From the NCBI GenBank assembly GCA_964468315.1, contig CAYXTA010000003.1:19000-82999 (forward strand): a stretch of 64,000 nucleotides of DNA. Reading direction: 5' to 3'. Below the pieces are notes generated by a model that saw only the letters and a list, made by a program, of their open reading frames with translations, did no database searches and had not been told where the DNA came from. The stretch comes from an uncultured Candidatus Saccharibacteria bacterium. Its GTDB lineage: Bacteria > Patescibacteriota > Minisyncoccia > Phycocordibacterales > UBA9973. A program made the translations under genes and the position numbers. Below, piece by piece: positions 5,315 through 54,640 of the stretch; positions within the stretch are counted from its first letter, which is position 1; every line of letters starts with the position of its first letter.

Positions 5315-5399
5315 GCTTAGATAGTAGCATAAAGCTAAAAAAATTGCAAGTACCCGTGTCGCACAATATTTTGAGTCTTTTTTGATATACTATATATGT

Positions 5400-6317
5400 A
5401 TGGCTTCAAAGATAGAACAACTCAAAAGACAATTTTTGGAATATTTAGAAATTGAAAAAGGTTCAAGTTTGAAAACTGTCAGAAATTACGAGCACTACTT
5501 GAGTAGGTTTTTTGATTTTACAAAAATCACAGAACCAAAAGAAATCACAGATGAAAATATTCGTGAATTCAGACTTTTTTTAAATAGACAAAGTGGTGTG
5601 AAAGTCCGCGGGCAAGTGTCTGCGACGATGAAAAAAAATACTCAAAATTATTATCTCATAGCTCTTCGTGTGTTTCTAAAATATATGATGAAAAGAGATA
5701 TCAGTGCCCTCTCCCCTGATCGTATAGAACTAGCAAAAATAAAAGAGAGAAGCTTGGACTTGATAACTGAAAATGAACTCGAAAGACTTCTCTCTGGGCC
5801 AAATGGAAATGATTTGAAAAATCTTCGCGATAAAGCAATACTCGAACTTTTCTTTTCTACTGGTCTTCGTGTCTCAGAGCTCGCATCTATAAATAGAGAT
5901 TTGGATATTTCAAAAGAAGAATTTTCTATCCGAGGAAAAGGTGAAAAAGTACGCGTAGTTTTTCTTTCTGAGAGTGCTCGTAATGCAGTGAAAGAATATT
6001 TAAAAAAGAGAGATGATATGGAAGAAGCGATGTTTGTGAAAATAACAAATAATAAAAAAGACACAGCAAGCAGACTCACGACTAGGTCAATAGAAAGAAT
6101 AGTAAAATATTATGCGACGAAAGCTGGTATTTCAAAAAAAGTTACTCCGCACGTTATACGTCACTCTTTTGCTACAGATCTTCTTTCAAATGGAGCAGAT
6201 ATTCGATCTGTGCAGATGATGCTAGGTCATGCAAATATTGCGACTACTCAAATATATACTCACGTCACAGACAAACAACTTCTCGAAGTACACAAAAAAT
6301 TCCACAGTAAAAAATAA
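5400..6317 (+). CDS. tyrosine recombinase, XerC/XerD family
   Basis: C-terminal catalytic HVIRHSFATDLLSNGADIRSVQMMLGHANIATTQIYTHV (R..HxxR...Y); ATG at 5400 preferred over TTG at 5382. Confidence 0.9.
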   Translation: MASKIEQLKRQFLEYLEIEKGSSLKTVRNYEHYLSRFFDFTKITEPKEITDENIREFRLFLNRQSGVKVRGQVSATMKKNTQNYYLIALRVFLKYMMKRDISALSPDRIELAKIKERSLDLITENELERLLSGPNGNDLKNLRDKAILELFFSTGLRVSELASINRDLDISKEEFSIRGKGEKVRVVFLSESARNAVKEYLKKRDDMEEAMFVKITNNKKDTASRLTTRSIERIVKYYATKAGISKKVTPHVIRHSFATDLLSNGADIRSVQMMLGHANIATTQIYTHVTDKQLLEVHKKFHSKK

Positions 6318-6444
6318 AAAAACGGCCTGCATAGTAGCAGACCGTCTTACTCGAGTTACAAAATATCCGTGGTTTACTTTTTGTACGATCAGAAAATCAT
6401 ACATGTATTGAGGGATGCGAAAATCGCCCGAGTCGTTTTTTAAA

Positions 6445-6609
6445 TTAGATAAAAGTACTAATTTCTTCTTTCTTTACATGTTTGGGTTCTACATGCTTGT
6501 AATGTTTTTGTAATTCTTTTTCTTTTTTTGTTTGCTTCTTTTTTGGGTTAAAAATAAATGAAAACAAACCCTCAATTAATGATTCTTTTTTTTCTTTTTT
6601 TTCCGACAT
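6445..6609 (-). CDS. possible small lysine-rich protein (54 aa)
   Basis: MSEKKEKKESLIEGLFSFIFNPKKKQTKKEKELQKHYKHVEPKHVKKEEISTFI read by hand from minus strand; below ORF-track size cutoff. Confidence 0.25.
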   Translation of the reverse strand: MSEKKEKKESLIEGLFSFIFNPKKKQTKKEKELQKHYKHVEPKHVKKEEISTFI

Positions 6610-6724
6610 AATTTCTTGTTTTTAAGGATCTATAAATATTTAAAATTTCATTTATATAATAACCTATTTTCTATAAAAAAGCAAGTTTTGTGATAGGGCT
6701 TTTGTTTTGTGTTATTATTCCTAT

Positions 6725-7498
6725 ATGACAAAAATAATTTCTTGGAATACAAACGGTTTGCGTGCGACAGCAAAACAAGGATTTTTTACTCCCATTTTTA
6801 AAAAATATAAACCCGACATTTTGTGTTTACAAGAAACGAAAGTAGAACCCGATCAGTTACCCGATGATGTACGAAATATAAAAGGTTATGAAAGTTTTTT
6901 CTCATATTCAAAATTAAGAAAAGGATACAGTGGTGTTGCTTTATATACAAAACAAAAACCACTAGAAGTTTTTTATGGAATGGGAATAAAGAAATTCGAT
7001 GATGAAGGTAGAATAGTCGGAGCAAAGTTCAAAGATTACACTATTATATGTGGTTACTATCCAAATGGTGGTTCTGGTCCACATCGTCTTGAATATAAAC
7101 TTGAATTTTATGATGCATTTTTGAAATTCATCCTGAATTTACGAAAAAAAGGTGAGAATGTTATATTTTGTGGTGATATAAACACTGCACACGAAGCAGT
7201 CGACCTCGCTCGCCCTAAAGCAAATGAAGAAAATACAGGTTTCCTCCCTATCGAGCGCGCATGGATTACCAAAGTTATAAAAAATAATTTTATCGATATT
7301 TTTCGAAAAATGAATCCAAATAAAAAAGATATCTATACATATTGGGACCAGAAGACAGCTTCTCGTACTCGCAATGTTGGTTGGCGTATTGATTATTTTT
7401 TTGTTGATGAAAAAATAGTACCAAAAGTAAAAAATACAGGTATGATTACAGACTATATGGGTTCAGACCACTGCCCTATTTTTCTTGATTTAAAATAA
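6725..7498 (+). CDS. xth: exodeoxyribonuclease III (AP endonuclease, Xth family)
   Basis: MTKIISWNTNGLRA...ILCLQETK...GDINTAHEAVDLA...WDQ...SDHCPI motifs. Confidence 0.9.
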   Translation: MTKIISWNTNGLRATAKQGFFTPIFKKYKPDILCLQETKVEPDQLPDDVRNIKGYESFFSYSKLRKGYSGVALYTKQKPLEVFYGMGIKKFDDEGRIVGAKFKDYTIICGYYPNGGSGPHRLEYKLEFYDAFLKFILNLRKKGENVIFCGDINTAHEAVDLARPKANEENTGFLPIERAWITKVIKNNFIDIFRKMNPNKKDIYTYWDQKTASRTRNVGWRIDYFFVDEKIVPKVKNTGMITDYMGSDHCPIFLDLK

Positions 7499-7594
7499 AG
7501 ATAAGTATTGACTTAGTTCCTTTTAAAATGTAGTCTTAAGCCAGAAATTAAACTCCTACCTTAACAATTAAAACCTTAAATTAAACCTGAAGTC

Positions 7595-9229
7595 ATGATC
7601 TTAGTACCTGAGAAAGAACTCGTCAATAAATCTGAAGAGTTTCTCAGGAACCTGAAAGACTCTCTGCCCCCACTTCTTGATGTAATCCATAAAAAGATTA
7701 CCATTGGAAATGTTATAAGATCTCCAATAGGAGCGCCTTACTTCTTTATTTATCTTCCACAAAGCATACAAGCAGATGGTATTGCGATTGCTGAAATAGA
7801 ACAATCTATAATTAATTTTGGAGGAAAGTTTACCATGAGTACTCCTTTAGGAAATGTAGATGCAATCCAAGTCACTCTTGCGCTCAAAGATGTAAGTGAA
7901 TTCAGATTCAAAAAAACAAAAAATACGTACGAAACAACAAATAAAAACAATATAGAAATCATGAAAAAAGTAGCTATTAAAGACTTCCAAGACTTAAAAA
8001 AAGAAATTAAAAATTTCTTAAAAATGCTCTGTTTTACAGATACACATTATTCACAGATAATTCCTGAAGCAGATCTTAATATGGAGTACGGACCTGTATT
8101 CTTAAAAGAGAAAGCTTATGCAGATTATGTAATTGCTCAAGCCGAAAAATACAAGAAACTCAATGGATATGTTGTTGCTCGGGTTGGGGAAATAAAAAAC
8201 GTTTACTTTAAGATTGGGTTTATTAACCCATTGACTGAAGAACAACCGTTACCACCGGAATTCACTGTTGTTCCTACTACTACAAAGGAAGAGGCTCCCA
8301 AACCACTGCTTGTTCAAGCCCCTGTTCCTCTTTCTAAAGAAAAAGTTGAAACTAATAATAACGAAGATCCACGTTCTGGTTTAATTGCACTCTTGAAAGC
8401 TAACAATTTCAAAATGGGACCAGATTTCAGTTCTATCACATTGAACGCTACTAAAACTCGTGCTTCGATAAATAGTATTCAGACGAAACGTCAGGAAATG
8501 ATTGAAATGTTCACAAAGGATGGCTCATTCGATTCTCTGGGATTAGAAAGTCCTAAATCTATCCAGGTGAATTTGGAGCTTTTCAAAAAACTTTCAAATA
8601 TTTCTGGTGTTGAATCCAAAGTTCCTGTAGAGAAAAAAGCGTCTAAAGATACTAGTACAAAGAACGATAAAAGTGAGGATAAACAGAACAGAAGTATCCT
8701 TAGTAACTTTTTACGCTCTAATGGTTTAAAACCTGGTATTCATTATGAAAGGATTATACCTAGTACAAAACAAGGTTTTGCAATACTAAAAAAGGTACCT
8801 GTTGATGGAGGTCAGCGTGAAGAACTTTTAGCTGTATTTAAAAACAGTAATGCGTTTGAATGCTTGGATTTTTCCAATGAGAAATCAATCACGGTGAATC
8901 TGGTTGTATTAAAAAACTCTTTGATTGGAAAAACTAAAGCAACACAAAGCCAGGATAAAAAAGTAGTTAAAGTCAAAGAAGACAAGGTTCCTAAAAAAGT
9001 TGAACAAACTATTGATTTTTCTGAGCCGTTACATAAGCTTGAAGAGATCTCTAATAGGTTAGATCTAATGACAAAAAAGATTCAATTTGACCCCGCAACT
9101 ATTTGGGACTTTATAAAATCTAATTTTTCAAAAGATTATGAATTTGAACTTTTAGTAAGGAGAAAAACTCCCGAAGGAGAAATATCAAAAGTAATTTCAC
9201 AAGAAGAATTACTTAAAATATTTCTCTAG
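7595..9229 (+). CDS. hypothetical protein (544 aa, Lys-rich)
   Basis: long ORF, no recognisable domain. Confidence 0.55.
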   Translation: MILVPEKELVNKSEEFLRNLKDSLPPLLDVIHKKITIGNVIRSPIGAPYFFIYLPQSIQADGIAIAEIEQSIINFGGKFTMSTPLGNVDAIQVTLALKDVSEFRFKKTKNTYETTNKNNIEIMKKVAIKDFQDLKKEIKNFLKMLCFTDTHYSQIIPEADLNMEYGPVFLKEKAYADYVIAQAEKYKKLNGYVVARVGEIKNVYFKIGFINPLTEEQPLPPEFTVVPTTTKEEAPKPLLVQAPVPLSKEKVETNNNEDPRSGLIALLKANNFKMGPDFSSITLNATKTRASINSIQTKRQEMIEMFTKDGSFDSLGLESPKSIQVNLELFKKLSNISGVESKVPVEKKASKDTSTKNDKSEDKQNRSILSNFLRSNGLKPGIHYERIIPSTKQGFAILKKVPVDGGQREELLAVFKNSNAFECLDFSNEKSITVNLVVLKNSLIGKTKATQSQDKKVVKVKEDKVPKKVEQTIDFSEPLHKLEEISNRLDLMTKKIQFDPATIWDFIKSNFSKDYEFELLVRRKTPEGEISKVISQEELLKIFL

Positions 9230-9248
9230 TAGATTGTAATTAATAATA

Positions 9249-9288
9249 AAAACCAGTTTAGAAAAAAGTTTCTAAACTGGTTTTTTAT
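9249..9288 (+). terminator. rho-independent terminator (ccagtttagaaa/tttctaaactgg)
   Basis: 12-bp perfect stem + T6. Confidence 0.65.
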
Positions 9289-9293
9289 TTTTC

Positions 9294-9322
9294 TTGCAAA
9301 ACTTAATATTTTGTTGTAATGT
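9294..9322 (+). promoter_or_regulatory. sigma70-like promoter TTGCAA-17-TAATGT
   Basis: immediately after terminator, 55 nt upstream of the 9378 ORF. Confidence 0.45.
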
Positions 9323-9377
9323 TTGGTTAAACAAATTCAGTACTCACCGAGCAAAAGCTCATTAAAAACTATATAAA

Positions 9378-9782
9378 ATGAAATCAAATACAGTAATCAA
9401 TTCAAAAGAATTGATGCTTCTATGCATCATTCGCAATAATATTGTTAGAGCTAAAAACCTAAAAATATTCGTTTGGACTATACGCCACGGGTTCTATGTT
9501 CATGATAAACTTAGAGACTTACCAGTATTTTATGAAGGTAATGATCTCAAGCTCATGAAAGATAACTTTTGCAAGGAAGCTAATGAAAAAATACCTGTGC
9601 AAGAGTCTATTTTTCGAAATTTTATTGTTAATGAAGCTAATTTCGTATCTTTATCAGATAAAGATGAAGATATGAGTTGGTATGGACCTTTCATGGATGA
9701 GGTTACTTATGATGGTGACTTTGAGCTTGAGATTGAATTGTCTTCAAGAGAAAAACAAATAATCAATCAATACTGTAATTAA
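9378..9782 (+). CDS. hypothetical protein (134 aa)
   Basis: ORF only. Confidence 0.45.
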   Translation: MKSNTVINSKELMLLCIIRNNIVRAKNLKIFVWTIRHGFYVHDKLRDLPVFYEGNDLKLMKDNFCKEANEKIPVQESIFRNFIVNEANFVSLSDKDEDMSWYGPFMDEVTYDGDFELEIELSSREKQIINQYCN

Positions 9783-9794
9783 AAAATAAAGAAA

Positions 9795-10007
9795 ATGAAA
9801 ATGGTAAGATTTTTAATCGGCAGTGTTCTGTTGGGTTTATTCGACAGAGTATGTATTATATTTTTTACAATCGTTTGCTTGATTGTTTCGCTCCTAGTCT
9901 TGTGTGTTTATTGCACTATTAATTTTGTTGAATTTTTTAGAAAAAACAAAATTCAATTTCGACCTAAAATTGAAACCATGGATTCACTTACATATCCTAA
10001 ACAATAG
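9795..10007 (+). CDS. small hydrophobic protein (70 aa, 2 predicted TM)
   Basis: ORF with two hydrophobic stretches. Confidence 0.3.
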   Translation: MKMVRFLIGSVLLGLFDRVCIIFFTIVCLIVSLLVLCVYCTINFVEFFRKNKIQFRPKIETMDSLTYPKQ

Positions 10008-10020
10008 TATTAAAATCATT

Positions 10021-10058
10021 CAAAAAACCTGTTCACAGATGTGCTCAGGTTTTTTTAT
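10021..10058. terminator. bidirectional terminator (aacctg...caggtt + T7)
   Basis: hairpin between convergent genes. Confidence 0.45.
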
Positions 10059-11584
10059 TTCTGTACTCCATGCTTTGCGTGGAGTTTTTTTATTTCTTCT
10101 TCTTCAGTTAATTCTTTCTTTTCTTTCGCTTTCTGTCCCAGAGCTTTGAGTTCTATGTCCGATAGAGTATTTAGTTCTTTCACACGGACATCAAGATATT
10201 CACGGACATTTTTACTAGGCTCATCAAGGACTTCTTCTAATAAAGCATTTAAAATAAAGCCCATTTTTGGTCCGGGTGTTATTCCTAGTTCTTTCATAAG
10301 TACATTACCATCTATTTTAAGTTGTGAGACGGATATAGGATCACGCAAACATTCTTCGATCATTGCATGATATTTTCGAAGACGATATGGAGCTTCTTTC
10401 TTTTTCATACCGACTCTGTCGCATTCACGCACTTGCATCAAATCCCAAATATTTTCTTTCCCAACATTCACGATCACCCTACGCACAGCAGAGAGTGTGA
10501 TAGTTTCCGTATCAGAAAAAAACATATGATAGCGTACAAGTTTTTCTACTTTTTCTGAAATATCTTTCGGGAATTTTAATCGTTCCATTATTTTTTTTAC
10601 CATGCGTGCACCGATAACTTCGTGACCATAGAAAGTATACTTCCCTTTTCCTCCTGCTTTTGTTCCATCCCATCTGCGTGTACGAGGTTTCCCTATATCA
10701 TGAAAAAGCGCAGAAAGCCTTATATCTAAAGGTAAATTTTTCTCTGCAGCATGTCCTAATGCATGGAGGATATGATCAAAAACATCATAGATGTGTTCAC
10801 CTTTTTGTTCACAATGTATTCCCTCTTCGAGTTCTGGAATAATATTTTTTAAAATTCCAAATCGTGAAAGCATACTTATACCTATCATCGGATTTTCTGA
10901 CATAATTATTTTTATAAATTCATCACGAATTCTTTCTGTGGATATCTTTTTTATTAGTTCTGAATTTTTTAAAATACTTTCTGTTGTTTCATGCGAGATA
11001 CTGAAATTTAATTGTGTAGAAAATCGTACTGCACGCACGAGACGAAGTGCATCTTCAGTAAATCTTTCATCTGCTTCCCCTACTGTACGAATCACTTTAT
11101 TTTGTATGTCCTTTAAACCTTCGAACATGTCTGTTAAATGTCCTTTTGAATCTAAAGCCAGTGTATTTATAGTAAAATCACGTCTTTTAAGGTCATCTTC
11201 TAGCTTTGTACTGAATTTTATTTCATCCGGATGTCTAAAATCACTATATCCAGCTTCAATTCTGTACGGTGTAACCTCAATTATCTCATATTCTGGTTCT
11301 TTGTTTTCATCTTCAGTTATAGTTTCACGTGTAACTTCTTTTGGAATACAAACACCAACTGTTCCAAAGTTATTCTCATAAACAGTTTTTTCGAATAAAG
11401 CTATTATTTGTTCTGGATTAGCATTTGTTGTTACATCCCAATCGTTCGGTTCCCTATTCATTATAAGATCACGAACACATCCACCGACTAGGTATGCTTC
11501 AAAACCAGCTTTTTCTAGAGCTTGTGTTACATGTGAAACTTCTTTAGGTATTTTACTTATTAAATTTTTTGTAAGTGTTTCCAC
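10055..11584 (-). CDS. cca: CCA-adding tRNA nucleotidyltransferase with C-terminal HD domain
   Basis: LVGGCVRDLIMNREPNDWDVTT (class II NT), RRDFTINTLA, HD motif HDIGK. The ORF-track start at 11662 overlaps tRNA-Gly, so the start is placed at in-frame GTG 11584. Confidence 0.85.
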   Translation of the reverse strand: METLTKNLISKIPKEVSHVTQALEKAGFEAYLVGGCVRDLIMNREPNDWDVTTNANPEQIIALFEKTVYENNFGTVGVCIPKEVTRETITEDENKEPEYEIIEVTPYRIEAGYSDFRHPDEIKFSTKLEDDLKRRDFTINTLALDSKGHLTDMFEGLKDIQNKVIRTVGEADERFTEDALRLVRAVRFSTQLNFSISHETTESILKNSELIKKISTERIRDEFIKIIMSENPMIGISMLSRFGILKNIIPELEEGIHCEQKGEHIYDVFDHILHALGHAAEKNLPLDIRLSALFHDIGKPRTRRWDGTKAGGKGKYTFYGHEVIGARMVKKIMERLKFPKDISEKVEKLVRYHMFFSDTETITLSAVRRVIVNVGKENIWDLMQVRECDRVGMKKKEAPYRLRKYHAMIEECLRDPISVSQLKIDGNVLMKELGITPGPKMGFILNALLEEVLDEPSKNVREYLDVRVKELNTLSDIELKALGQKAKEKKELTEEEEIKKLHAKHGVQK

Positions 11585-11605
11585 TCCAATAATTCTTTTT
11601 ATCTG

Positions 11606-11676
11606 TGCGGCGTAGGAGAATCGAACTCCTGTCTCATCCTTGGCAAGGACGTGTTCTACCACTAAACCAACACCGC
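11606..11676 (-). tRNA. tRNA-Gly (anticodon GCC), no encoded CCA
   Basis: folded by hand: acceptor GCGGTGT/ACGCCGC (one G-U), D stem GTTT/GAAC loop AGTGGTA, anticodon stem CGTCC/GGATG loop TTGCCAA, T arm AGGAG-TTCGATT-CTCCT; 3' is A-CA, not CCA. Confidence 0.85.
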
Positions 11677-11855
11677 GCTTTAACTAACTTTTAAATTTTA
11701 CTTATCAAACATGACTATTATGACATGAAAAACCACTAAACCAACACCGCAAGTGTTGTTATTTTTAATAATTCAATTATATCAGTTTTTTATTGTATTG
11801 CAATTTTTTAATTTACTTACTTAGCTATTTAGCTTATACTTATAAAGAGCATTTC

Positions 11856-11930
11856 GCACCCGTGGTGAAATGGATATCACAACGGTCTTCGGAACCGTTA
11901 TTGGGGGTTCGAATCCCTCCGGGTGCACCA
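11856..11930 (+). tRNA. tRNA-Arg (anticodon TCG), CCA encoded
   Basis: acceptor GCACCCG/CGGGTGC, D stem GTGA/TCAC, anticodon stem ACGGT/ACCGT loop CTTCGGA, T loop TTCGAAT, 3' ACCA. Confidence 0.9.
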
Positions 11931-12009
11931 GCAGGCGAGAAAGCAAATTTATTTGCTTTTGTGAGGGTATTCGAAAGGCTTTTCTATGCGAGCCTGGCGA
12001 GACAGAAAA

Positions 12010-12049
12010 GCACCTGGCTACGTAGTAGCCGAATCCTTCCGGGTGCACA
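12010..12049 (+). pseudogene. internally deleted tRNA-Arg-like remnant (acceptor + T-arm minihelix)
   Basis: GCACCTGG...CGAATCCTTCCGGGTGCAC copies the 5' 8 nt and 3' 20 nt (18/20) of the adjacent tRNA-Arg, with the D and anticodon arms replaced by a GGCTAC-GTA-GTAGCC hairpin. Confidence 0.45.
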
Positions 12050-12247
12050 TTAAAGACAGTAGTAGATTTGTCCTTTTATTTCATGTTAAATTATAAGGAT
12101 TTTACACAAAACTGTGGATAAGTCTGTTAGTAATGTTTATAAAGGACAAATATTTTTATGTCTTTTAAAGACATGTTTTGTCTAATAGCTTGTAATATAA
12201 GGGTTTTTTAGAAAAAGAAGAAAAATAGCTTAATTTATATAAAAAGT

Positions 12248-12270
12248 GTTTCACGTGAAACGTTTCACGA
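12248..12270. promoter_or_regulatory. candidate operator: GTTTCAC GTGAAAC GTTTCAC (perfect 14-bp palindrome plus third half-site)
   Basis: read directly; sits 15 nt upstream of the yraN ATG. Confidence 0.35.
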
Positions 12271-12284
12271 GTAACATAACAAAT

Positions 12285-12737
12285 ATGCCTAAGGTTTTTA
12301 CTTCAGAAAAACAAAAAATAGGGGAAATTGGCGAGAATGTCGCTTGTAAGTTTCTCGTGAAACACGGCTTTACTATTCTAGAAAGAAATTACACTAAAAA
12401 GTGGGGAGAAATAGATATTGTCGCACAACGACAAGAAAATAGGGCCCGCCTGCTCCCGAACCAGCGTGAGGGCGGGCAGGGATTAAAGCTATATTTTATT
12501 GAAGTTAAGGCTGTTACACGAGATTTGAATGTTATTCGTGAAACATTAGATAGTTATAGACCAGAAGATAATATGCATCCCTGGAAGCTTAAAAGGCTCT
12601 CAAGGACAATCCAAACATATTTAGTGTCCAAACATGTCTCTGAGAGTACAGAATGGCAATTTGACCTATTGGTGGTCTTTTTAGATATGAATAATAAGAA
12701 AGCGAGAGTCAAAAGGGTAGAGGATGTTATTTTATAA
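12285..12737 (+). CDS. yraN: UPF0102/YraN-family endonuclease-like protein
   Basis: IGEIGENVACKFLVKHGFTILERNYTKKWGEIDIVA...LYFIEVKA; contains an in-frame GC-rich insertion; ATG 12285 preferred over GTG 12246. Confidence 0.7.
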   Translation: MPKVFTSEKQKIGEIGENVACKFLVKHGFTILERNYTKKWGEIDIVAQRQENRARLLPNQREGGQGLKLYFIEVKAVTRDLNVIRETLDSYRPEDNMHPWKLKRLSRTIQTYLVSKHVSESTEWQFDLLVVFLDMNNKKARVKRVEDVIL

Positions 12738-12760
12738 GGATTAAGTGTTATAATTTCTCT

Positions 12761-13744
12761 ATGGAAAACTTTTTCAAAAAATCTATAAAAAAACTTGCCA
12801 CTGGTGCGGCTTTTGTAGGTGCTCTTGCTGGTTCGCCCGAAAAAGCTTATGGGCAGGTTATAGGTGTTGATAAAAATAAAACAAAAGAAAAAACAGAAGT
12901 ACCTGCTTACCATACAACTGATCCGCATGATCCGAGGATACAGGCATATAAAGATAGTATGAATAAGTATAGTACATATGAACGTTTTGCTAAAAATTGG
13001 AGGAATGATACTATTGGGTTTTTTGGCTCCAAAACAAAAATTACAACAACAAAAAAGCCTTTAGAGAAAGGTGCTGGAGATTTTTATAAGAAAGATAAAA
13101 TACAACCCTCTGAATGGTTAAATAAAGAAAGTTATAATAAGAATTATCTTGGGCCAACATATACTTATAATCCAGATAATGGATTGTATACTGATCCCAG
13201 CACTCCTTTTATTGAAGAAGACATTGATAGAAGTAAGATAAAGAAAATATTTCCTAAAATTACAGACGAAAATATTAATGAGGAAATTAAAAGGTCTCGA
13301 CAGGATTTAGAGAAACCAGTAACTTCCTATGACCAACCCTTCCTAATTAAGGGTTCTGTAGTGGGTGGTCCTTCTAATTTTACAAATGATCCAAGTAAAG
13401 GATATAAGGCAGAAAGTATAACAAATACGAAAATCACTAAAGGGTCCTCTTCCTTGCCCATGTATAAAAAACCAGTTCAAGAAGTTGTTTTAGATAAAAC
13501 CGATAACAAAATAGAAAACATAAAAAGAGAAATTGAACAAAAAATCTCAGAAAAAGAAATGGTTTTACCTAAAGGCCCGCTTAAATACGCTACAGTAGAC
13601 AAAGCTGGACAGAAATATTTCTTTATGACAGACAGCGTTGGTGGTACAGTTAGGTCTGTGACAGAGCGGGCTTATCAAAATGATTATAAAGATCTTCCTG
13701 AAGTGAAATACGAGGATCTAAAGAAGTTTCAAGAAGGGAAGTAA
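12761..13744 (+). CDS. secreted hypothetical protein (327 aa)
   Basis: signal peptide MENFFKKSIKKLATGAAFVGALAGSPEKAYGQ; Lys/Asp-rich. Confidence 0.55.
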   Translation: MENFFKKSIKKLATGAAFVGALAGSPEKAYGQVIGVDKNKTKEKTEVPAYHTTDPHDPRIQAYKDSMNKYSTYERFAKNWRNDTIGFFGSKTKITTTKKPLEKGAGDFYKKDKIQPSEWLNKESYNKNYLGPTYTYNPDNGLYTDPSTPFIEEDIDRSKIKKIFPKITDENINEEIKRSRQDLEKPVTSYDQPFLIKGSVVGGPSNFTNDPSKGYKAESITNTKITKGSSSLPMYKKPVQEVVLDKTDNKIENIKREIEQKISEKEMVLPKGPLKYATVDKAGQKYFFMTDSVGGTVRSVTERAYQNDYKDLPEVKYEDLKKFQEGK

Positions 13745-26622: not shown

Positions 26623-27015
26623 ATGCAAATAAGTCAATTTGAAGAAAAAGTACAAAAAGTTTTCCACAAAAAAATACTTTTTAATTTTAGTTGGTGTATA
26701 ATGTTATATATGTTTCAAAATAATAAGAAAATGGGTGTATTTTTATTTCTTCTCGTAATAATCATTTTGTCTGGTCTCTCATATTATTATTACTCTACTG
26801 TTATAAATAAAAAACAAGAACCAGCTGTACTTCCAAATATATCTCTCGAAGAAAGAACTGCAATTTTGAATGAATTGAATGCAACACCTAGTACTATAAA
26901 AGTATCAGCAGAAGAGAGAGCTCAAATTTTAAATGAATTAAAGGTACAAGAGGTAAATCAACCAAAAAATTTAACAGCACAAGATAAAAAAGCAATTTTA
27001 GATAGTTTTAATTAA
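26623..27015 (+). CDS. hypothetical membrane-anchored protein (130 aa; start may be internal)
   Basis: TM VFLFLLVIIILSGLSYYYY; internal repeat EERTAILNELN / EERAQILNELK. Confidence 0.4.
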   Translation: MQISQFEEKVQKVFHKKILFNFSWCIMLYMFQNNKKMGVFLFLLVIIILSGLSYYYYSTVINKKQEPAVLPNISLEERTAILNELNATPSTIKVSAEERAQILNELKVQEVNQPKNLTAQDKKAILDSFN

Positions 27016-27021
27016 TAAAAC

Positions 27022-29388
27022 ATGAAAAAAAATCTTTTAACCTACTTTTTAGCAATATTCGTTATAATTACAGGTTTTTTTGTTTCTGTTCATACAGCTC
27101 AAGCTTCAAGTACTGACAATATATATGGTTGGGGATGGTCAGATACTATAGGATGGATAAGTTTCAATAATTGTAGTGATCCTGCTGTTGCTTCTACTTG
27201 TCTTGGACAAAGTTATGGTGTTAAGTACGATACTACTGGAGATGTTACGGGTTATGCTTGGTCAGATACTATAGGATGGATACAGTTTGGAGGTTTAGGA
27301 GGTTTCCCTGGTGTTGGAGGACAAGCACATATAGATACAACAACAGGACAAATGACTGGTTGGGCTAAAGCTATTTCTTTAGAGAATCCAAATGATAATG
27401 AATTTTCTTCAGATTGGGCAGATGGATGGATAAGTCTTTCTGGTCTTGCTTCAAATGGAGCAAAATCTCCTTATGGAATAAGTTTTAATATGACTTCTGG
27501 CTTACCAAATGCCAATTCTTTTGCTTGGGGTTCAAATGTTTTGGGTTGGATAACTTTCGGGCAAGTTAAATTAAAAACTACACTTGTAACTACTTTAGAT
27601 CCAAAGATTATATTAACAGTCACAGAGCTTAATGCTTCAAATGTCCCTGTAAATGTCACAGGAGGAACAACTCCACCACCTAACAAGGCTTCTGCTACAT
27701 CTACTACAACAGTTAGTGGTTCTGATGGCACTGCTATTATAAATGGTCATAAATTAAAGATAGAATGGGGAGCTCAAGATGTAGATTATGCTACTTGTGA
27801 AGGTAGAAATACTTATTCAGATACTAATTGGGATTGGAATCCACCTAGTTATTTTGCACCATTTACTCCTGCTACAAGTTGGGGAAGTGCTATTACAAAT
27901 ATTTTATCACCTGCTCAAGAAACAAATATAGACTTTACTCTTAGATGTAAAGCAAAAAATGCAAACAAACCACTTGATCCTTATATAACAGCAACTATAA
28001 ATATAGATGTGAAAGCCCCAGCCCCTTCTGTGACTCTTTATGCAAATGGTCAAACAAATGCAAATGGAAATATTATTTATGTGCAATTAGGTGGAAATGT
28101 TACACTTTCTTCAAAAGGAAATAATCTAGACTTGGGTACATCTGGTAGTGGTGATTGGCCTACAGCTGATCCTGTTAAGGGTGTATTATGTCCAAAAGCT
28201 TTAAATATTTTTACAAATTATATTCCTTTTTCTCTAGATACTATAGGTGTTTATACATATAACATTTCTTGTTTCTCAGATACAGGTAATAGAATAGATG
28301 GTTCAGTTACAGTAAATGTTGTTACAACAATACCAAATACTCAAAAACTTTTACTTAGAATTACAGACTTAACTGACCCAACTAATATAAAAGATGCTTT
28401 GTCTGATGCAAATAACAAAGAAGTTTCATCAACTCTTTCAGGGGATATATTAGAGGGTCGTGACATAAAAATAGAGTGGGGAACGGATAATATCCCCCCA
28501 GATGAAAGACAATCAAAATGTTTTGCTTCATCTTCTGTGGCATCAAATTGGAATTGGTTAAATAATCCTTATGATGCAACAATAAATCCATCCCACCTAG
28601 GAAGTGCAACAAGTACTCCTTCCATCTTTGTATCACCACTCCCTGGTTCTATTACTTACCAAGTTGCTTGCCCAAAATTAAACTCCGGTATAAGTTTGAC
28701 GTCAAGTATTACTGTAAATATAAAACCATCTATTGTTACTGGAGGTGATTCTTTGACTATTAATCCTATTAGTCCTTTAGATTGTAGAGCTGATAGTTTC
28801 TTTCCTGAAGTAAAAGTTTCACCTAAGGATTTAGATTTATCAAGCGAAAAATGTGTATTTAGAATAACTGGACCAAACGGATTTTTACTTAATACTTCTG
28901 CCACACCTTCACCTAGTGCTCCTTCAACTTCATATAGTATTGGAGGTTTACCTGGTAATAGTTCTACGTCTTTGCAAAATTATGACGTTACCTTGATATG
29001 TTCTACTATTTCTTCAAATACAGAAACATTCGGTATCAATAGTTGTGTACAAACATCTTCACTTACTTCAAATATGAGAGATATGTGTCTTAAATCAGGA
29101 GACCAATTTACTTTCACTTGGAGTTCAACAAATATGGTTAATGATAGTTGTGTTGTAACAGAAACAGATCAAAATGGAAAAGAAATTAAAAGTTACAATG
29201 TTGCTACTAGCGATACACAATCATTCCCAGTAAATTCTCCACTTTCTTCATTTAAACTTTCTTGTCAAAGTAGTCTCGATGGAGCATTCTGGAGCGCAGG
29301 TCCTGCTTTAGTTGAAACTGCTGATAAAAATGGAGTTTGTCATACCGTAAAAGCAAAAAGGAAAGCCCCAATATACAAAGAAATTTAG
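27022..29388 (+). CDS. large secreted surface protein (788 aa): Trp-rich repeat module, Thr-rich linker, Cys-paired beta-sandwich-like repeats
   Basis: signal peptide MKKNLLTYFLAIFVIITGFFVSVHTAQA; five GWxWSDTIGWIxF-type repeats; about 9 Cys pairs at 50-70 aa spacing. Confidence 0.8.
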   Translation: MKKNLLTYFLAIFVIITGFFVSVHTAQASSTDNIYGWGWSDTIGWISFNNCSDPAVASTCLGQSYGVKYDTTGDVTGYAWSDTIGWIQFGGLGGFPGVGGQAHIDTTTGQMTGWAKAISLENPNDNEFSSDWADGWISLSGLASNGAKSPYGISFNMTSGLPNANSFAWGSNVLGWITFGQVKLKTTLVTTLDPKIILTVTELNASNVPVNVTGGTTPPPNKASATSTTTVSGSDGTAIINGHKLKIEWGAQDVDYATCEGRNTYSDTNWDWNPPSYFAPFTPATSWGSAITNILSPAQETNIDFTLRCKAKNANKPLDPYITATINIDVKAPAPSVTLYANGQTNANGNIIYVQLGGNVTLSSKGNNLDLGTSGSGDWPTADPVKGVLCPKALNIFTNYIPFSLDTIGVYTYNISCFSDTGNRIDGSVTVNVVTTIPNTQKLLLRITDLTDPTNIKDALSDANNKEVSSTLSGDILEGRDIKIEWGTDNIPPDERQSKCFASSSVASNWNWLNNPYDATINPSHLGSATSTPSIFVSPLPGSITYQVACPKLNSGISLTSSITVNIKPSIVTGGDSLTINPISPLDCRADSFFPEVKVSPKDLDLSSEKCVFRITGPNGFLLNTSATPSPSAPSTSYSIGGLPGNSSTSLQNYDVTLICSTISSNTETFGINSCVQTSSLTSNMRDMCLKSGDQFTFTWSSTNMVNDSCVVTETDQNGKEIKSYNVATSDTQSFPVNSPLSSFKLSCQSSLDGAFWSAGPALVETADKNGVCHTVKAKRKAPIYKEI

Positions 29389-29456
29389 TAAGTGTTATAA
29401 TTAAAAGATTAAATTTAAAAAATTATTAGTAAATTATTAGGATAGATAAAAATATT

Positions 29457-30473
29457 ATGAAAAAAGAATTTATACAATCAATAAAGTTTCTACTTCTCAG
29501 TATTGTTGTTGGCGTGAGTGTTTCATATGCATCTGCTGCTGGAGTTGCTGGTAGTTGGGTTGGGCCTACAGCAACAGCTCCAAATGGAAATGTATACGGA
29601 CCGATAAATGTTGGCCCAAGTAATCAAACAAAACAAGGTATTCTTGCTGCAGGAAACTTATATTCAAATAATAATATTTTTGCTGGCTCAGCTTCTTTCT
29701 CACAAAACTACCCTGGTACTTTGACTGGTGGATCTGTTTCTGCAAATTGGTTTTGTTTACCTCCAGTATCTGGAGCTAACGCCGACTGTATAACCAAATG
29801 GGCTGACATTCTAGCAAATAACAATATTCTTTCTCTTCCAACAGGTACTATCTTAGGTCAAACATTATACTGGGACACAACAGCACCTGCTAAATGGAAA
29901 GTAAATAATATTTTTAAAATAAATCCTACTACTAACGTAGCTAGTGTTACAGGTAAATTAGATGTATCAAGCGATGTTACATTAAACGGAAACATTATAG
30001 CTCCAACTCTTGCAAGTAAAACACTTTGTACAGATGCTACAGGTAAATTCATAGCTTGTGCAGGAGGTACAGCAAACCCAGGAGGAGTATTACCTCTTGG
30101 TACTTCTGAAGGACAAACATTATATTGGAGCAATACTACTCCTGTGCAGTGGAAGGCTAATAGTATACTAACTGTTGATACAGCTACACCAAGTGTAAAA
30201 GTCAACAATGCTACAGTAGTTATCGATCTTACTGGTAACAATGGTTCTCTTGGTAGAGATGGAGTTTATATTCAATCAAGTCTTGATAATACAAACAGCA
30301 CCATTAGTACCAATAGAAATGCTTTTCAATTTTGGAGTACTCAAAATAATGCAAATGCAGATATTATTGGTCGTGATTATGTTGGAAGAGGTGGAACATT
30401 TTCTTCTTTAGTTGGAGGTAACTCAAGTAATGTTTGTGCAGACAATACTGGTAAATTAATCGTTTGTCCATAA
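29457..30473 (+). CDS. secreted protein, paralog A (338 aa) of the downstream gene
   Basis: signal peptide; shares SQNYPGTLTGGSV and a 128-aa identical block with 30488..32836. Confidence 0.75.
   Translation: MKKEFIQSIKFLLLSIVVGVSVSYASAAGVAGSWVGPTATAPNGNVYGPINVGPSNQTKQGILAAGNLYSNNNIFAGSASFSQNYPGTLTGGSVSANWFCLPPVSGANADCITKWADILANNNILSLPTGTILGQTLYWDTTAPAKWKVNNIFKINPTTNVASVTGKLDVSSDVTLNGNIIAPTLASKTLCTDATGKFIACAGGTANPGGVLPLGTSEGQTLYWSNTTPVQWKANSILTVDTATPSVKVNNATVVIDLTGNNGSLGRDGVYIQSSLDNTNSTISTNRNAFQFWSTQNNANADIIGRDYVGRGGTFSSLVGGNSSNVCADNTGKLIVCP
29774..30159 (+). repeat. 386-bp segment identical to 30877..31262
   Basis: compared base by base; also mirrored by identical antisense ORF translations in the ORF track. 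Confidence 0.9.
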
Positions 30474-30487
30474 AATAATTTTTTAAA

Positions 30488-32836
30488 ATGCAAAAACAAA
30501 TAATTAAAATATTAAAAGGTGTTATATTCTCTGTATTTTTAAGTATGAGTTTTGTTTCTGTTTATGCTTCTTGGACTGCACCTACAAATTCTGCCCCAAA
30601 TAATAATGCTACTGGTTATATTGATACTAGTTCAAGTAATCAAACAAAATCGGGACTTTTAGGAGCAGGTAATTTGTATTCAAATAATAATATATATGCT
30701 GGTCCAAATTCTTTTTCACAAAACTACCCTGGTACTTTGACTGGTGGATCTGTGGCGACAACATGGTTTTGTTTACCAATAGACACTACTGGTGGTTCTG
30801 GTGGTACAGGAGCTATTACTTTTATAAAGAAAATAATCTCTACAAATTTTGTAAACGCTGCAACAACAAATCCTTCAGCTAACGCCGACTGTATAACCAA
30901 ATGGGCTGACATTCTAGCAAATAACAATATTCTTTCTCTTCCAACAGGTACTATCTTAGGTCAAACATTATACTGGGACACAACAGCACCTGCTAAATGG
31001 AAAGTAAATAATATTTTTAAAATAAATCCTACTACTAACGTAGCTAGTGTTACAGGTAAATTAGATGTATCAAGCGATGTTACATTAAACGGAAACATTA
31101 TAGCTCCAACTCTTGCAAGTAAAACACTTTGTACAGATGCTACAGGTAAATTCATAGCTTGTGCAGGAGGTACAGCAAACCCAGGAGGAGTATTACCTCT
31201 TGGTACTTCTGAAGGACAAACATTATATTGGAGCAATACTACTCCTGTGCAGTGGAAGGCTACAGATGTATTGAAAGTACTTTCTTCTAACGGAAGAATT
31301 GTTACAAAAAATGCAAAATTAGATATAAATCTTTTAACTAAGAGTGGGGTTGCTGGCCGTAATGCTCTTTTTATAAATTCGAGTGCTGATAATGTAAATA
31401 GTACATTTATAACAAATACACCAACTTTTACACTTTTCGCAAACAGAATACAATATTCCGGTAATCCAGCTGGGCCAGCAGATATAATTGCTCGTGATTA
31501 TACTGGAAGAAATGGAACTTTCTCAACTTTAGATTCAACAACTAACCCAGGAGTTCTTTATCCAGCATTAGTTTGTAAACAAGCAACGGGTAAATTATTT
31601 CTTTGTCCAAGTCAATGTTATGACCATGTAGATAATGATTCTGATGGTTTTATTGATTTTCCTGCTGATCCTGGCTGTACATCTAGAACAGACAACAATG
31701 AAAGTGATCCTGTTCCACCACCTCCTATTCCTCAATGTTCTGATGGTATAGACAATGATGGAGATGGGCTTACTGATTACGTTGGTGGTGATTTCGGTTG
31801 TACATCTGTAAATGACAACGATGAAATTCATGCTCCAATTGTTCAATTGCTCGTCTCAGGTTTAGCTCCTGTTCCTAGTACTCCAATAACATATACTTCA
31901 ACATTTGGTCCTGGTGGCACAACAAATGCAATGGCTCTTTCATACCCAGCTAATATAATGAACATTTCATATGGAGGTATAATTATTAATGGAGTATTAC
32001 ACCCAGCTGGACCAGGGTATCCAGTACCTATATATCCAAATGTTACTAATTTGTCACCAAATACTATTTGTACGGCATCTGCAAAAGAATTAGGAAGCAA
32101 TAATGATGTGAGTGTTCTTTCAGGATGGACTGGTGTAAAAAATCCCTCAAATCCGTTTTTTGATTCTAGAATTTATCATTTTGGAATAACACAACTTACA
32201 CTTTCTTGTGATGCTGATGGAAATACTGCAACTACTGGTGATATAGGTTCTGGTTCTGCTACTGTTGAAATAAATGGAAGTGTTACTATTGGTTCGAGTG
32301 ATCCTACTAATGATGTTACTGGTTCATTTACTGTTCCTGGTAATATCCCAACCTTCAGTGTTACGTTGATTGGATCAGGAGGTGCTGGTGCCGCATATCC
32401 TAATAACGGACAGGACGGTACAAACACTAATCTTATGATCGGTACAACGACGATCGCTAGTGCACACGGTGGTTCCGGTGGAGGAAATAGCGCATCTTGT
32501 GGAATTAGCCCTAGTGCTCCTTGTGGAGGTGCTGGTTCGTCTGGTTCTGGTGCCGGAAGCTCTGGTGGTACTACAACAAAAGGTTGTGGAGGTAAACCTG
32601 GTGGAGGAGCACCACTTTGTGCTGGTGTATCATTAAATACATCAGGAACAAAAAACCCAGGTTATGGAGGTAATGGCCAAATAAATCATTCAGGAGGAGG
32701 TGGTGCAGGTGCTATATACTTTAATGGAGCTATTTCTAACCCAGGTACTGCTATTAACTATATAATTGGACGTGCTGGTATTGGTTTTGGAAATGTAAAT
32801 GATGGAGGACCTGGAGATATAAAAATTTCTTGGTAA
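30488..32836 (+). CDS. secreted protein, paralog B (782 aa) with Cys-flanked DxDxDG loops and Gly-rich C-terminal domain
   Basis: signal peptide; CYDHVDNDSDGFIDFPADPGC and CSDGIDNDGDGLTDYVGGDFGC; 150-aa Gly/Ser-rich tail. Confidence 0.8.
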   Translation: MQKQIIKILKGVIFSVFLSMSFVSVYASWTAPTNSAPNNNATGYIDTSSSNQTKSGLLGAGNLYSNNNIYAGPNSFSQNYPGTLTGGSVATTWFCLPIDTTGGSGGTGAITFIKKIISTNFVNAATTNPSANADCITKWADILANNNILSLPTGTILGQTLYWDTTAPAKWKVNNIFKINPTTNVASVTGKLDVSSDVTLNGNIIAPTLASKTLCTDATGKFIACAGGTANPGGVLPLGTSEGQTLYWSNTTPVQWKATDVLKVLSSNGRIVTKNAKLDINLLTKSGVAGRNALFINSSADNVNSTFITNTPTFTLFANRIQYSGNPAGPADIIARDYTGRNGTFSTLDSTTNPGVLYPALVCKQATGKLFLCPSQCYDHVDNDSDGFIDFPADPGCTSRTDNNESDPVPPPPIPQCSDGIDNDGDGLTDYVGGDFGCTSVNDNDEIHAPIVQLLVSGLAPVPSTPITYTSTFGPGGTTNAMALSYPANIMNISYGGIIINGVLHPAGPGYPVPIYPNVTNLSPNTICTASAKELGSNNDVSVLSGWTGVKNPSNPFFDSRIYHFGITQLTLSCDADGNTATTGDIGSGSATVEINGSVTIGSSDPTNDVTGSFTVPGNIPTFSVTLIGSGGAGAAYPNNGQDGTNTNLMIGTTTIASAHGGSGGGNSASCGISPSAPCGGAGSSGSGAGSSGGTTTKGCGGKPGGGAPLCAGVSLNTSGTKNPGYGGNGQINHSGGGGAGAIYFNGAISNPGTAINYIIGRAGIGFGNVNDGGPGDIKISW
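30877..31262 (+). repeat. 386-bp segment identical to 29774..30159
   Basis: see the paired repeat. Confidence 0.9.
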
Positions 32837-32844
32837 TAAATACA

Positions 32845-32876
32845 AAAAACACCCTACTAAAACAGGGTGTTTTTTG
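32845..32876 (+). terminator. terminator (caccct-actaaaac-agggtg + T6)
   Basis: hairpin right after the paralog B stop. Confidence 0.6.
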
Positions 32877-32889
32877 TTATACTGGAAAT

Positions 32890-33645
32890 ATGCAAAATAA
32901 AAAGATAACAAAAAAATTAATTGTTGCTAATTGGAAAATGAACCCTTCTTCTTTAAAAGAAGCTACAAAAATAGCTAAAGCCTCTGATATAAATGGTGTA
33001 GTAATTTGTGTTCCTTCTGTTTTTATCAATCCTTTAAAAAAAATTGTTAAAAAAGCAAAAATCGGTGCGCAAAATATTTCAACTGAAGAGAGTGGTGCGT
33101 TTACCGGTGAAATTTCAGGAGATATGATTTATGACTTAGGTGCAAGATATGTAGTAGTTGGCCATTCAGAAAGACGTGAAATGGGAGAAAATAATGTTGA
33201 TATAAATAAAAAAATAAAAATCTCTTTAACTAAAGGGCTTTCACCCATACTTTGTGTTGGTGAAAAAGAAAGAGATGTTAATGATATTAATCATGAATAT
33301 TTTAATATTGTAAAAAAACAAATTGAAGAAGCATTTTTTGGTATTTCTAAAAATCTTGTTTCAAAAATAATTATTGCTTATGAACCTGTTTGGGCTTTAT
33401 CTACGACTGTAGGCCGACATGACACCACTTCAACAGATTGCCAAGAAATGGTTTTGTTTATCAAAAAGATTTTGTCAGATATATTTTCTCAACAGATAGC
33501 TCAAAATATAAAAATACTTTATGGTGGTTCTGTGAATGAAAAAAATATTGATGATTTTGTTACAAACGGTGGAATAGATGGAGTTCTTGTTGGTAAAGCT
33601 AGTCTCGATCTTAAAAAATTTAAATTAATTACATATTATGCATAG
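32890..33645 (+). CDS. tpiA: triosephosphate isomerase
   Basis: IVANWKMN...VGHSERR...AYEPVWA...GGSV; ATG 32890 preferred over the upstream in-frame start overlapping the terminator. Confidence 0.92.
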   Translation: MQNKKITKKLIVANWKMNPSSLKEATKIAKASDINGVVICVPSVFINPLKKIVKKAKIGAQNISTEESGAFTGEISGDMIYDLGARYVVVGHSERREMGENNVDINKKIKISLTKGLSPILCVGEKERDVNDINHEYFNIVKKQIEEAFFGISKNLVSKIIIAYEPVWALSTTVGRHDTTSTDCQEMVLFIKKILSDIFSQQIAQNIKILYGGSVNEKNIDDFVTNGGIDGVLVGKASLDLKKFKLITYYA

Positions 33646-44590: not shown

Positions 44591-44617
44591 AAAAATCCCC
44601 GAAAGGGGATTTTTGTT
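44591..44617 (+). terminator. terminator aaaaatccccgaaaggggatttttgtt (copy 1 of 2 identical)
   Basis: identical 27-mer recurs at 54614..54640. Confidence 0.7.
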
Positions 44618-44648: not shown

Positions 44649-44683
44649 TTTGAAATTAAAATAGTATAAACGTTATTTAAAAA
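44649..44683 (+). repeat. 35-bp leader repeat copy 1 (tttgaaattaaaatagtataaacgttatttaaaaa)
   Basis: identical to 45683..45717; ends 8 nt before the ATG. Confidence 0.9.
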
Positions 44684-45682: not shown

Positions 45683-45717
45683 TTTGAAATTAAAATAGTA
45701 TAAACGTTATTTAAAAA
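45683..45717 (+). repeat. 35-bp leader repeat copy 2
   Basis: identical to 44649..44683; ends 9 nt before the ATG. Confidence 0.9.
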
Positions 45718-54613: not shown

Positions 54614-54640
54614 AAAAATCCCCGAAAGGGGATTTTTGTT
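54614..54640 (+). terminator. terminator aaaaatccccgaaaggggatttttgtt (copy 2 of 2 identical)
   Basis: identical to 44591..44617. Confidence 0.7.

Follow-up and report, generated by a model that had tools for sequence, protein, structure and literature searches.

Tandem genes sharing an identical internal block

The window analysed here is a 64-kb stretch of contig CAYXTA010000003.1 (positions 19,000 to 82,999); its G+C content is 33%, and it is an ordinary chromosomal segment of a low-G+C, Paceibacterota-like bacterium of the Patescibacteria. Two adjacent genes in this window, designated A and B, share an identical internal block, which is the subject of this study. Gene A (29457..30473, + strand) encodes a protein of 338 amino acids (aa) with the Sec-type signal peptide MKKEFIQSIKFLLLSIVVGVSVSYASA and the C-terminal end ...VCADNTGKLIVCP. 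Gene B (30488..32836, + strand) is co-oriented with A, from which it is separated by 14 nucleotides (nt). Its product of 782 aa also carries a signal peptide, and the N-terminal 374 aa are paralogous to the entire A protein (61% protein identity over 379 columns). The signal peptides end in ...SYASA|AG and ...SVYA|SW, and neither is followed by a lipobox cysteine. Protein A contains the conserved leader motif W.GPT..AP.GN..GPINVG..NQTK.G and two units that terminate in a Cys loop. Beyond the paralogous part, protein B continues with two acidic double-disulfide repeats of the form C.D..DND.DG.ID...D.GC (31619..31830, + strand, 123 nt apart), which lie outside the block, and ends with a Gly-rich C-terminal domain.

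The block occupies 29774..30159 in gene A (codons ~107-234) and 30877..31262 in gene B (codons ~131-258), on the + strand and in frame in both genes. An initial annotation of the sequence had described these 386-bp copies as identical base for base. This was confirmed by direct string comparison: 386/386 nt matched, with 0 extra matching bases on either side. The 128-aa reading from ANADCITKW to VQWKA (frame +2) and its diverging continuations, NSILTVD in A and TDVLKVLS in B, were likewise seen in the translation. The next-longest exact repeats across the window measured 38, 35, 27 and 24 nt. When the two genes were aligned, 222 of the 999 shared sites were mismatched, and the longest identical run comprised 379 columns; after shuffling of the match/mismatch string, the longest run was at most 59 in 20,000 shuffles, and the union bound gave P <= 2e-44. 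Nucleotide identity between A and B per 60-nt line was 55-75% before the block, 100% inside it and ~50-65% after it, and immediately outside the block it fell to ~60% (55-62%).

A second, partly homogenised tract lies upstream of the block (29617..29761 in A and 30633..30777 in B, both on the + strand). Its two copies are 83% identical and contain an exact core of 38 nt (29700-29737 and 30716-30753). The shorter near-identical stretch that had been annotated at 29699..29742 and 30716..30759 is therefore real, but its coordinates were one base out of register, the A-to-B offset being 1016 and not 1017. For the block, the offset is 1103. The difference of 87 nt is due to a 29-residue linker that is carried by B and is absent from A: the linker segment of B (30778..30876, + strand, IDTTGGSGGTGAITFIKKIISTNFVNAATTNPS) was found in alignments to be 87 nt (29 aa) longer than the 12 nt of A at this position (29762-29773). 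This linker indel lies between the upstream tract and the block, whose left edge it defines. The first block copy is followed, up to the second, by a 717-nt unit (30160..30876, + strand) made up of A's variable 3' part, the 14 nt between the genes and B's variable 5' part. Together with one block copy, it constitutes a repeat period of 1103 nt.

According to an alignment with distant relatives, the block spans a segment with Cys, one short unit and 23 residues from the start of the unit that follows. The short unit, with the pattern LPxGxxGQTLYW...W ... CTDATGKFIAC, is specific to the lineage of the window, since the divergent loci L006 and L012 described below lack it. The block also holds an internal duplication of the LPxGxxGQTLYW...W motif (29844-29873 and 30099-30166, and likewise in the B copy). 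When A, B and the block were searched against the whole window with tblastn and sensitive blastn, only the two block copies were found, and both sit in complete genes with start codons and signal peptides.

The protein family is poorly represented in databases. Protein A had no match in Pfam, NCBIfam or PHROG. Protein B had none in these collections except NF033662 (NCBIfam), which matched the two repeats (E = 2.4e-9) with 36.7 bits, below the cut-off of 41. Only 7 homologues of A were found among 5.8 billion proteins, and exact copies of proteins A and B were not on record in public assemblies. A HMMER scan of 1.84 billion representatives gave 960 matches, nearly all of them to the N-terminal leader (positions 1-70) or the C-terminal Cys-loop unit and not to the block. 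The many low-coverage matches, for which coverage percentages were the sole guide, probably also correspond to the acidic repeats of B. From the few full-length distant relatives aligned, the family appears to be modular, with a leader, at least one unit extending from LPxGxxxQTLxxxxxxW to VCxDxxGKLxxC and often a C-terminal Gly_rich_2 domain (PF21722), which was detected at the C-terminus of distant relatives. A profile search of Protein Data Bank (PDB) sequences gave no match. AlphaFold2 models built with 7 and then with 14 sequences reached predicted local distance difference test (pLDDT) scores of 38 and 50, and no fold is claimed; Foldseek comparison of the better model with the PDB returned nothing at E <= 0.001.

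Concerted evolution of the block among related strains

The related loci compared with the window were contigs encoding close homologues (L001-L008, L010 and L011) and, in addition, L012, which was obtained from a distant representative match. L007 and L008 belong to one strain recovered from two samples; they cover the entire syntenic locus with ~87% DNA identity to the window. In L007, the A block (9293-9674) and the B block (10394-10775) were 100% identical over 382 nt, and this sequence was ~9% different from the block of the window (90.8% identity, 9.2% difference). Within one genome, the A and B blocks were thus 100% identical, both in the window and in L007/L008, whereas between genomes the identity was 87-93% for A-A, B-B and A-B comparisons alike. 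The sequences on both sides of the block followed orthology instead. In the 5' (196 nt) and 3' (~360 nt) segments, identity was 75-95% for A-A and 90-92% for B-B, and only 58-62% for A-B.

Synonymous sites displayed the same behaviour. Between the window and L007, the synonymous divergence (dS) of the block was 0.42 (29/90 synonymous sites) and the nonsynonymous divergence (dN) was 0.021, whereas between the A and B blocks of either genome 0/90 synonymous differences were found. Therefore, purifying selection on the protein cannot explain the identity of the block. At a divergence between A and B as small as that of the orthologues, 0 differences in 379 sites would be expected with a probability of 1e-16. 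The dN/dS ratio of the block between strains was 0.03-0.05, the lowest in the gene; elsewhere it was 0.13-0.27 (~0.2 in the flanks).

A third strain, L001, was consistent with this pattern. Its A and B copies were identical over the 106 nt visible before the contig ended inside the repeat, and over these 106 nt its B copy was ~6% different from the block of the window (5-7% by BLAST). The right tract edge was the same in the window and L007, ...CA(G/A)TGGAAGGC(T/A)A, and the left edges were ~4-6 nt apart (386 vs 382 nt). In the 110 nt preceding the linker, A and B were 99% identical in L007 versus 84.5% in the window. In L005, gene A (P0004, 367 aa) has a B-type linker, and therefore one tract there spanned the indel.

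One contig contained a single gene in place of the pair. In L010, a 22.7-kb metagenome contig, A and B are replaced by a 759-aa gene (6001-8280) that consists of the 5' end of A, the block and the 3' end of B, and exactly one 1103-nt repeat period is missing. For 9 nt past the block the junction is mosaic (AAT A-type, GAT B-type, ATA A-type), after which the sequence is B-type; such a junction also fits a strain-specific B allele. The fusion could be either a real crossover deletion or the result of an assembler skipping a loop.

Recurrence of the tract in divergent cassettes

The four-gene cassette to which A and B belong is on the + strand and ends with these two genes, which follow genes for a 130-aa protein and a 788-aa secreted protein. 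The cassette spans 26623-32836 in the window and 6185-12349 in L007. In L006, a metagenome-assembled genome of the Patescibacteria, the gene order from nusA to tpiA is the same and the cassette is located at 6960-13189. An exact tract of ~795 nt is common to its genes A' and B', the flanks being saturated, and both genes carry a linker. In L012 (1-8659), the large protein is followed by A'' and B'', which share a tract of 642 nt at 100% identity. The position of this trio is not the one flanked by nusA and tpiA; immediately downstream of it are type IV pilus genes encoding a PilB-like ATPase, PilC (T2SSF) and a pilin-like protein with the N-terminus G|FSIVE.

The A proteins of the three cassette types (window, L006 and L012) are only 34-46% identical to one another, and yet each paralog retains its own type of C-terminal region. 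A-type proteins end in (V/I)C(A/V)(D/N)xxGKLI(V/I)CP in all three types, and B-type proteins have NPGV(L/I)YPA(L/H)VC followed by the acidic repeats and the Gly-rich end. Because these paralog-specific C-termini are orthologous across the three types, the duplication must be older than the tracts. A recent segmental duplication can be rejected, since A and B, although homologous in their 5' and 3' parts, are saturated there (dS 0.6-0.9, dN ~0.5), and since these parts are orthologous across cassette types.

The comparison for mosaic breakpoints that had been proposed with the initial annotation revealed that the tract limits differ among related genomes (L005, L006, L007 and L012). Exact tracts were present in 4 of the 5 lineages in which both copies were visible, with widely differing lengths of 386, 642 and 795 nt. 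The surrounding chromosome is far more conserved than the cassette. Between the window and L006, protein identity was 97% for NusA and RecJ (82-85% at the DNA level) and 78% for phosphoglycerate kinase, but 33% for the 788-aa protein, 40% for A and 50% for B. Judged from these sequences, the cassette is a hypervariable island in a conserved backbone, in each version of which A and B share an identical core. This hypervariability suggests allelic replacement or diversifying selection of a surface structure.

Probable gene conversion between the paralogs

These findings make it highly probable that the block is a gene-conversion tract between old tandem paralogs and that gene conversion has been recurrent, resulting in concerted evolution of a conserved core. 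By sequence comparison, the duplication predates the strains, and the core has been homogenised separately, or continuously, in each of them. The very recent recombination between adjacent paralogs that had been deduced from the window, and that is read here as non-reciprocal, is thereby supported by the related loci. The presence of the recombination-related genes recJ and comEC in the window also speaks for gene conversion.

The following course of events is proposed. A break or gap in one copy would be repaired from the neighbouring copy or from the sister chromosome by strand exchange, presumably mediated by RecA. Resolution of the intermediate without crossover would leave a conversion tract. 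The central core would in this way be copied repeatedly between A and B, and the end encoding the signal peptide and the C-terminal part of the shared domain would remain paralog-specific. Resolution of the same intermediate with crossover would delete or duplicate one 1103-nt period, and the deletion would fuse the 5' end of A to the 3' end of B. Near-perfect identity over tens of bases is required for strand exchange, which heterology blocks. The sharp tract edges would be expected because strand exchange cannot enter heterology, which is formed on the left by the 87-nt linker indel and on the right by diverged sequence of ~60% identity (dN ~0.5). The core, in turn, would stay similar enough to keep recombining because it is the most constrained part of the protein.

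Several points weigh against this interpretation or narrow it. L002 is the closest sequenced relative in which part of both copies can be seen, and its A and B blocks are different at 17/194 sites, including 5 conservative amino-acid changes in 64 residues. Homogenisation is therefore not universal, unless the low-coverage short-read contig of L002 mixes strains. The 17 sites form an interleaved pattern that indicates no donor direction, and neither the direction nor the timing of the last conversion event can be deduced. Next, recA and recombination genes other than recJ and comEC were not seen in the 64-kb window. Finally, the analysis is based on assemblies and not on reads, and the block interior may contain a few collapsed differences between A and B; because de Bruijn assemblers merge near-identical copies (bubble popping), the perfect identity may hide very few such differences. 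A few hidden differences would leave the gene-conversion conclusion unchanged.

Selection on the core and variation of the cassette

Identity of the core may itself be selected, for instance if the short A and the long B co-assemble via the core or dock on the same partner. This explanation is compatible with gene conversion and is a tentative possibility, less likely than not. It would account for the core being the most constrained segment (dN/dS 0.03-0.05 vs ~0.2 in the flanks), for the exact tracts in 4/5 lineages and for the preservation of the A+B pairing and of the 788-aa partner gene across cassette types, including the different context of L012. The strain of L002, however, tolerates 5 amino-acid differences in 64 residues, and the tract limits vary widely among lineages (386, 642 and 795 nt). 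Moreover, high conversion rates between tandem repeats give zero differences even when selection is not involved, and the predicted structures, given their pLDDT scores, are unusable as a guide to co-assembly.

An extension of this idea, which is rather unlikely, is that A and B must carry the same core, e.g. for co-assembly with the 788-aa partner into a surface fibre, that frequent conversion enforces this sameness even as the cassette as a whole diversifies quickly from strain to strain, and that crossovers in the core yield fused variants such as the one in L010, leading to variation in host contact at the population level. In the L012 lineage, the cassette is located beside type IV pilus genes. 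Cultivated relatives among the Patescibacteria are host-dependent; members of the present clade probably are too, and the organism of the window may be.

It is more doubtful still that the locus is a selected or programmed variation system in which the block acts as a recombination handle used to shuffle, delete or fuse the variable 5' and 3' parts of A and B. The 759-aa gene of L010 is exactly the predicted crossover product, and the mosaic of ~9 nt past its block, the acquisition of the B linker by gene A in L005 and the hypervariability of the whole cassette (33-50% protein identity between the window and L006, compared with 97% for NusA and RecJ) would all agree with such a system. A literature analogue exists in the lpl cluster of Staphylococcus aureus (PMC2568036). 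Nevertheless, the L010 gene may be an assembler collapse of the tandem repeat, and a deletion is a one-way event and not a switch. All two-gene loci that were examined had congruent variable 5' and 3' parts, A-type with A-type, and it is the conserved and not the variable part of the gene (dN/dS 0.03-0.05) that constitutes the block. The tblastn and blastn searches within the 64-kb window found two copies only and no silent or partial donor cassettes. For these reasons, the cassette exchange and cassette-like surface variation mentioned in the initial annotation are not upheld: both copies in the window are full-length, silent donors were not found there, and no part of the proteins is more conserved than the block. 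The more general suggestion that the block is a substrate for variation has some merit in so far as the repeat seems to give rise to structural variants (the possible L010 fusion and the B-type linker of A in L005), but the net effect of the exchange is homogenisation rather than diversification.

Integrity of the assembly

An assembly error duplicating one locus had been named as the observation that would overturn the initial annotation. The corresponding explanation is that one block copy, or two diverged copies, were duplicated or homogenised by an assembler or polisher. Some features of the data are in its favour: short-read contigs around the locus are fragmented and sometimes chimeric, the single fused gene of L010 looks collapsed, and de Bruijn repeat resolution writes one unitig twice, so that perfect identity is partly built in. 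One such chimera is L011, a sister contig of the L002 strain, in which unrelated G+C-rich sequence (positions 1-105) is joined inside the block.

The explanation was tested indirectly, using independent assemblies of the window strain that were 100% identical to the window. The strain was present in the sequencing runs ERR4405439, ERR4405440, SRR35185575, SRR25018341 and ERR1193331. Three Logan contigs (k=31) from different runs have their first base at 31233, k-1 (30 nt) short of where block B ends, and two others (L020 and L021) break off at 29729, after entering the 38-nt repeat by 30 nt. The end of a MEGAHIT k127 contig with 99.8% identity to the window coincides with the final base of block A (30159), and a contig from the Joint Genome Institute (L015) begins at 31146, 117 nt before the end of block B. 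Contigs of related strains also end inside the repeats. Breaks exactly at the repeat edges occurred in at least five independent assemblies that had been produced with various assemblers and values of k, from which it may be concluded that both left-hand and both right-hand continuations exist in the reads. A pair of copies 5-9% diverged would not break a k=31 graph in this way. In addition, the 3' end of A, the 14-nt spacer and the 5' end of B are linked physically on contigs L001-L005 and L011, and the two-copy layout is needed to place them. Contigs from four other samples (L006, L007, L008 and L012) span the locus and show an in-frame identical tract with strain-specific sequence in each. 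A duplication or homogenisation artefact at the block is therefore very unlikely, and the assembly explanation as a whole is disfavoured to the point of being highly improbable.

The least probable explanation is that the nucleotide sequence itself is constrained or that an element has been inserted. Candidates would be an antisense gene or RNA embedded in the block, a mobile insertion and the template/variable repeat pair of a diversity-generating retroelement, a type of element said to be common in Patescibacteria. Although antisense open reading frames (ORFs) of 127 and 91 aa overlap the two block copies, this explanation can be practically dismissed. Orthologous copies differ freely at synonymous sites (dS 0.42), which argues against any constraint on the nucleotides, and the block codes in frame for protein whose units have homologous counterparts in relatives. 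In addition, a repeat scan found no terminal repeats at the ends of the block, the search found two copies only, no reverse transcriptase was detected among the window ORFs scanned (several ORFs of at least 120 aa being left unscanned), zero mismatches between the copies leave no adenine-specific ones, and 386 nt is much longer than a typical template repeat.

The cassette and its chromosomal surroundings

The cassette begins with the gene of the 130-aa small protein (26623..27015, + strand), which has a hydrophobic, probably membrane-spanning stretch. An ORF of 100-104 aa occupies this position in L006, L007, L008 and L010, where it was matched by position and not by homology. The next gene (27022..29388, + strand) encodes the 788-aa secreted protein, which contains GWxWSDTIGWI motifs and ends in KAPIYKEI. 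It always accompanies A and B (L006, L007, L010 and L012). Near its start, GW.WSDTIGWI(S/Q)F motifs are repeated at 27127-27159 and 27250-27282 (123 nt apart, 88% DNA identity), and no family match was obtained. A promoter-like site, TATACA-18-TG-TATAAT, was recognised by its match to the consensus at 29372..29401 (+ strand), 56 nt upstream of the start of A. Directly after B lies a strong hairpin with T-runs on both sides (32842..32877), which likely ends the A-B transcription unit.

The cassette is located between nusA and tpiA. The genes upstream include those for RNase Y, ClpP, trigger factor, pyrophosphatase and nusA; downstream are tpiA, pgk, recJ, RNase H and comEC and, further on, rpsL-rpsG-fusA-tuf. 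Proteins that match the EF-Tu and S7 of the window identically or nearly so carry the source labels Candidatus Paceibacterota or Patescibacteria. No phage or transposon genes were found among the window ORFs scanned (as for reverse transcriptase, within the limits given above), and the sole recombinase seen among them was of the Xer type (phage-integrase family, 5382-6317).

A number of other features were noted. The mechanically called ORF of tpiA (32830-33645) begins at a TTG inside the end of B. Because TIM has 251 aa in the related loci, the real start is probably an ATG at ~32890, past the terminator hairpin. The L007 and L008 contigs have the same sequence except that pgk falls into two ORFs in L007 (13159-14278) and recJ does so in L008 (9032-10667); these splits are probably assembly indel errors rather than pseudogenes. 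Two consecutive genes, with start codons at 44692 and ~45728, are inserted between rpsG and fusA. Just 5' of each is an exact 35-nt repeat (TTGAAATTAAAATAGTATAAACGTTATTTAAAAA..., 44649-44683 and 45683-45717), which the two genes may have in common as a promoter or leader. A terminator-like hairpin of 27 nt (AAAAATCCCCGAAAGGGGATTTTTGT) occurs in identical form 3' of rpsG (44591-44617) and 3' of rplB (54614-54640).

Comparison with known systems

Bacterial gene conversion between tandem paralogs was described decades ago. The mechanism proposed here is thus ordinary, and the value of the finding is local. The cell-surface biology of the Patescibacteria is almost unknown, and the locus is now flagged as a candidate surface or host-contact cassette whose gene order is conserved and whose sequence is hypervariable. 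The exact tracts of 380-800 nt in four independent lineages also point to active homologous recombination in these small genomes. In practical terms, the repeat causes short-read metagenome assemblies of the locus to break up, to become chimeric and possibly to collapse.

The tufA/tufB pair of Salmonella is one example of gene conversion between paralogs. Concerted evolution by intrachromosomal gene conversion has also been described for other bacterial paralogs, e.g. rRNA operons and prfA/prfB (PMC5485169, PMC8022953, PMC4530459). As in these classical cases, a segment common to two paralogs is homogenised, including its synonymous sites, the tract limits are set by divergence, and within the block the paralogs of one genome are closer to each other than the orthologues of different genomes. 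Unlike in the classical cases, A and B are tandem, co-oriented genes 14 nt apart that encode secreted proteins of no known function, their host is an uncultivated bacterium of the Patescibacteria, and conversion affects only an internal core, with both ends strongly diverged. A full-text literature search found no paper on gene conversion in Patescibacteria; the papers returned mentioned neither subject in title or abstract.

In the pilE/pilS system of Neisseria, vlsE of Borrelia and msp2 of Anaplasma, many silent cassettes feed variable segments into one expression site, which generates diversity. Gene conversion acting on genes for surface-exposed proteins is a feature that the present locus would share with these systems of antigenic variation. 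However, A and B are two expressed-looking full-length genes that exchange a conserved core and thereby remove diversity; the exchanged part is not hypervariable, and the window contains no silent donors. Diversity-generating retroelements differ from the locus in possessing a reverse transcriptase, which was absent from the scanned ORFs, and in the mismatches of their repeats, of which the A/B repeats have zero.

The babA/babB genes of Helicobacter pylori, which encode outer-membrane proteins, are found at dispersed loci, and it was shown experimentally that their chimeras change adhesin expression. Like A and B, they are paralogs that combine near-identical segments (5' or 3') with diverged middles or ends, and the chimeric genes that arise from them by recombination are comparable to the L010 fusion; A and B, however, are tandem rather than dispersed.

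In the tandem lipoprotein cluster lpl of S. aureus, each ORF has a conserved central region that serves as the site of homologous recombination, and the unit of rearrangement consists of the variable region at the 3' end, the spacer between genes and the next 5' variable region (Tsuru & Kobayashi 2008, PMC2568036). The locus studied here differs from lpl in having two genes and no multi-gene cluster and in showing no shuffling or incongruence of 5' and 3' regions among the two-gene loci. A and B are not lipoproteins (their signal peptides are of the ASA type and have no lipobox cysteine), and the sequence families are unrelated. The same unit of 3' variable region, spacer and 5' variable region is the one missing in L010, which may be an assembly collapse. 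In its layout, with tandem ORFs that each have a central conserved region between 5' and 3' variable regions, the A/B pair resembles the lpl cluster more than any of the other systems considered.

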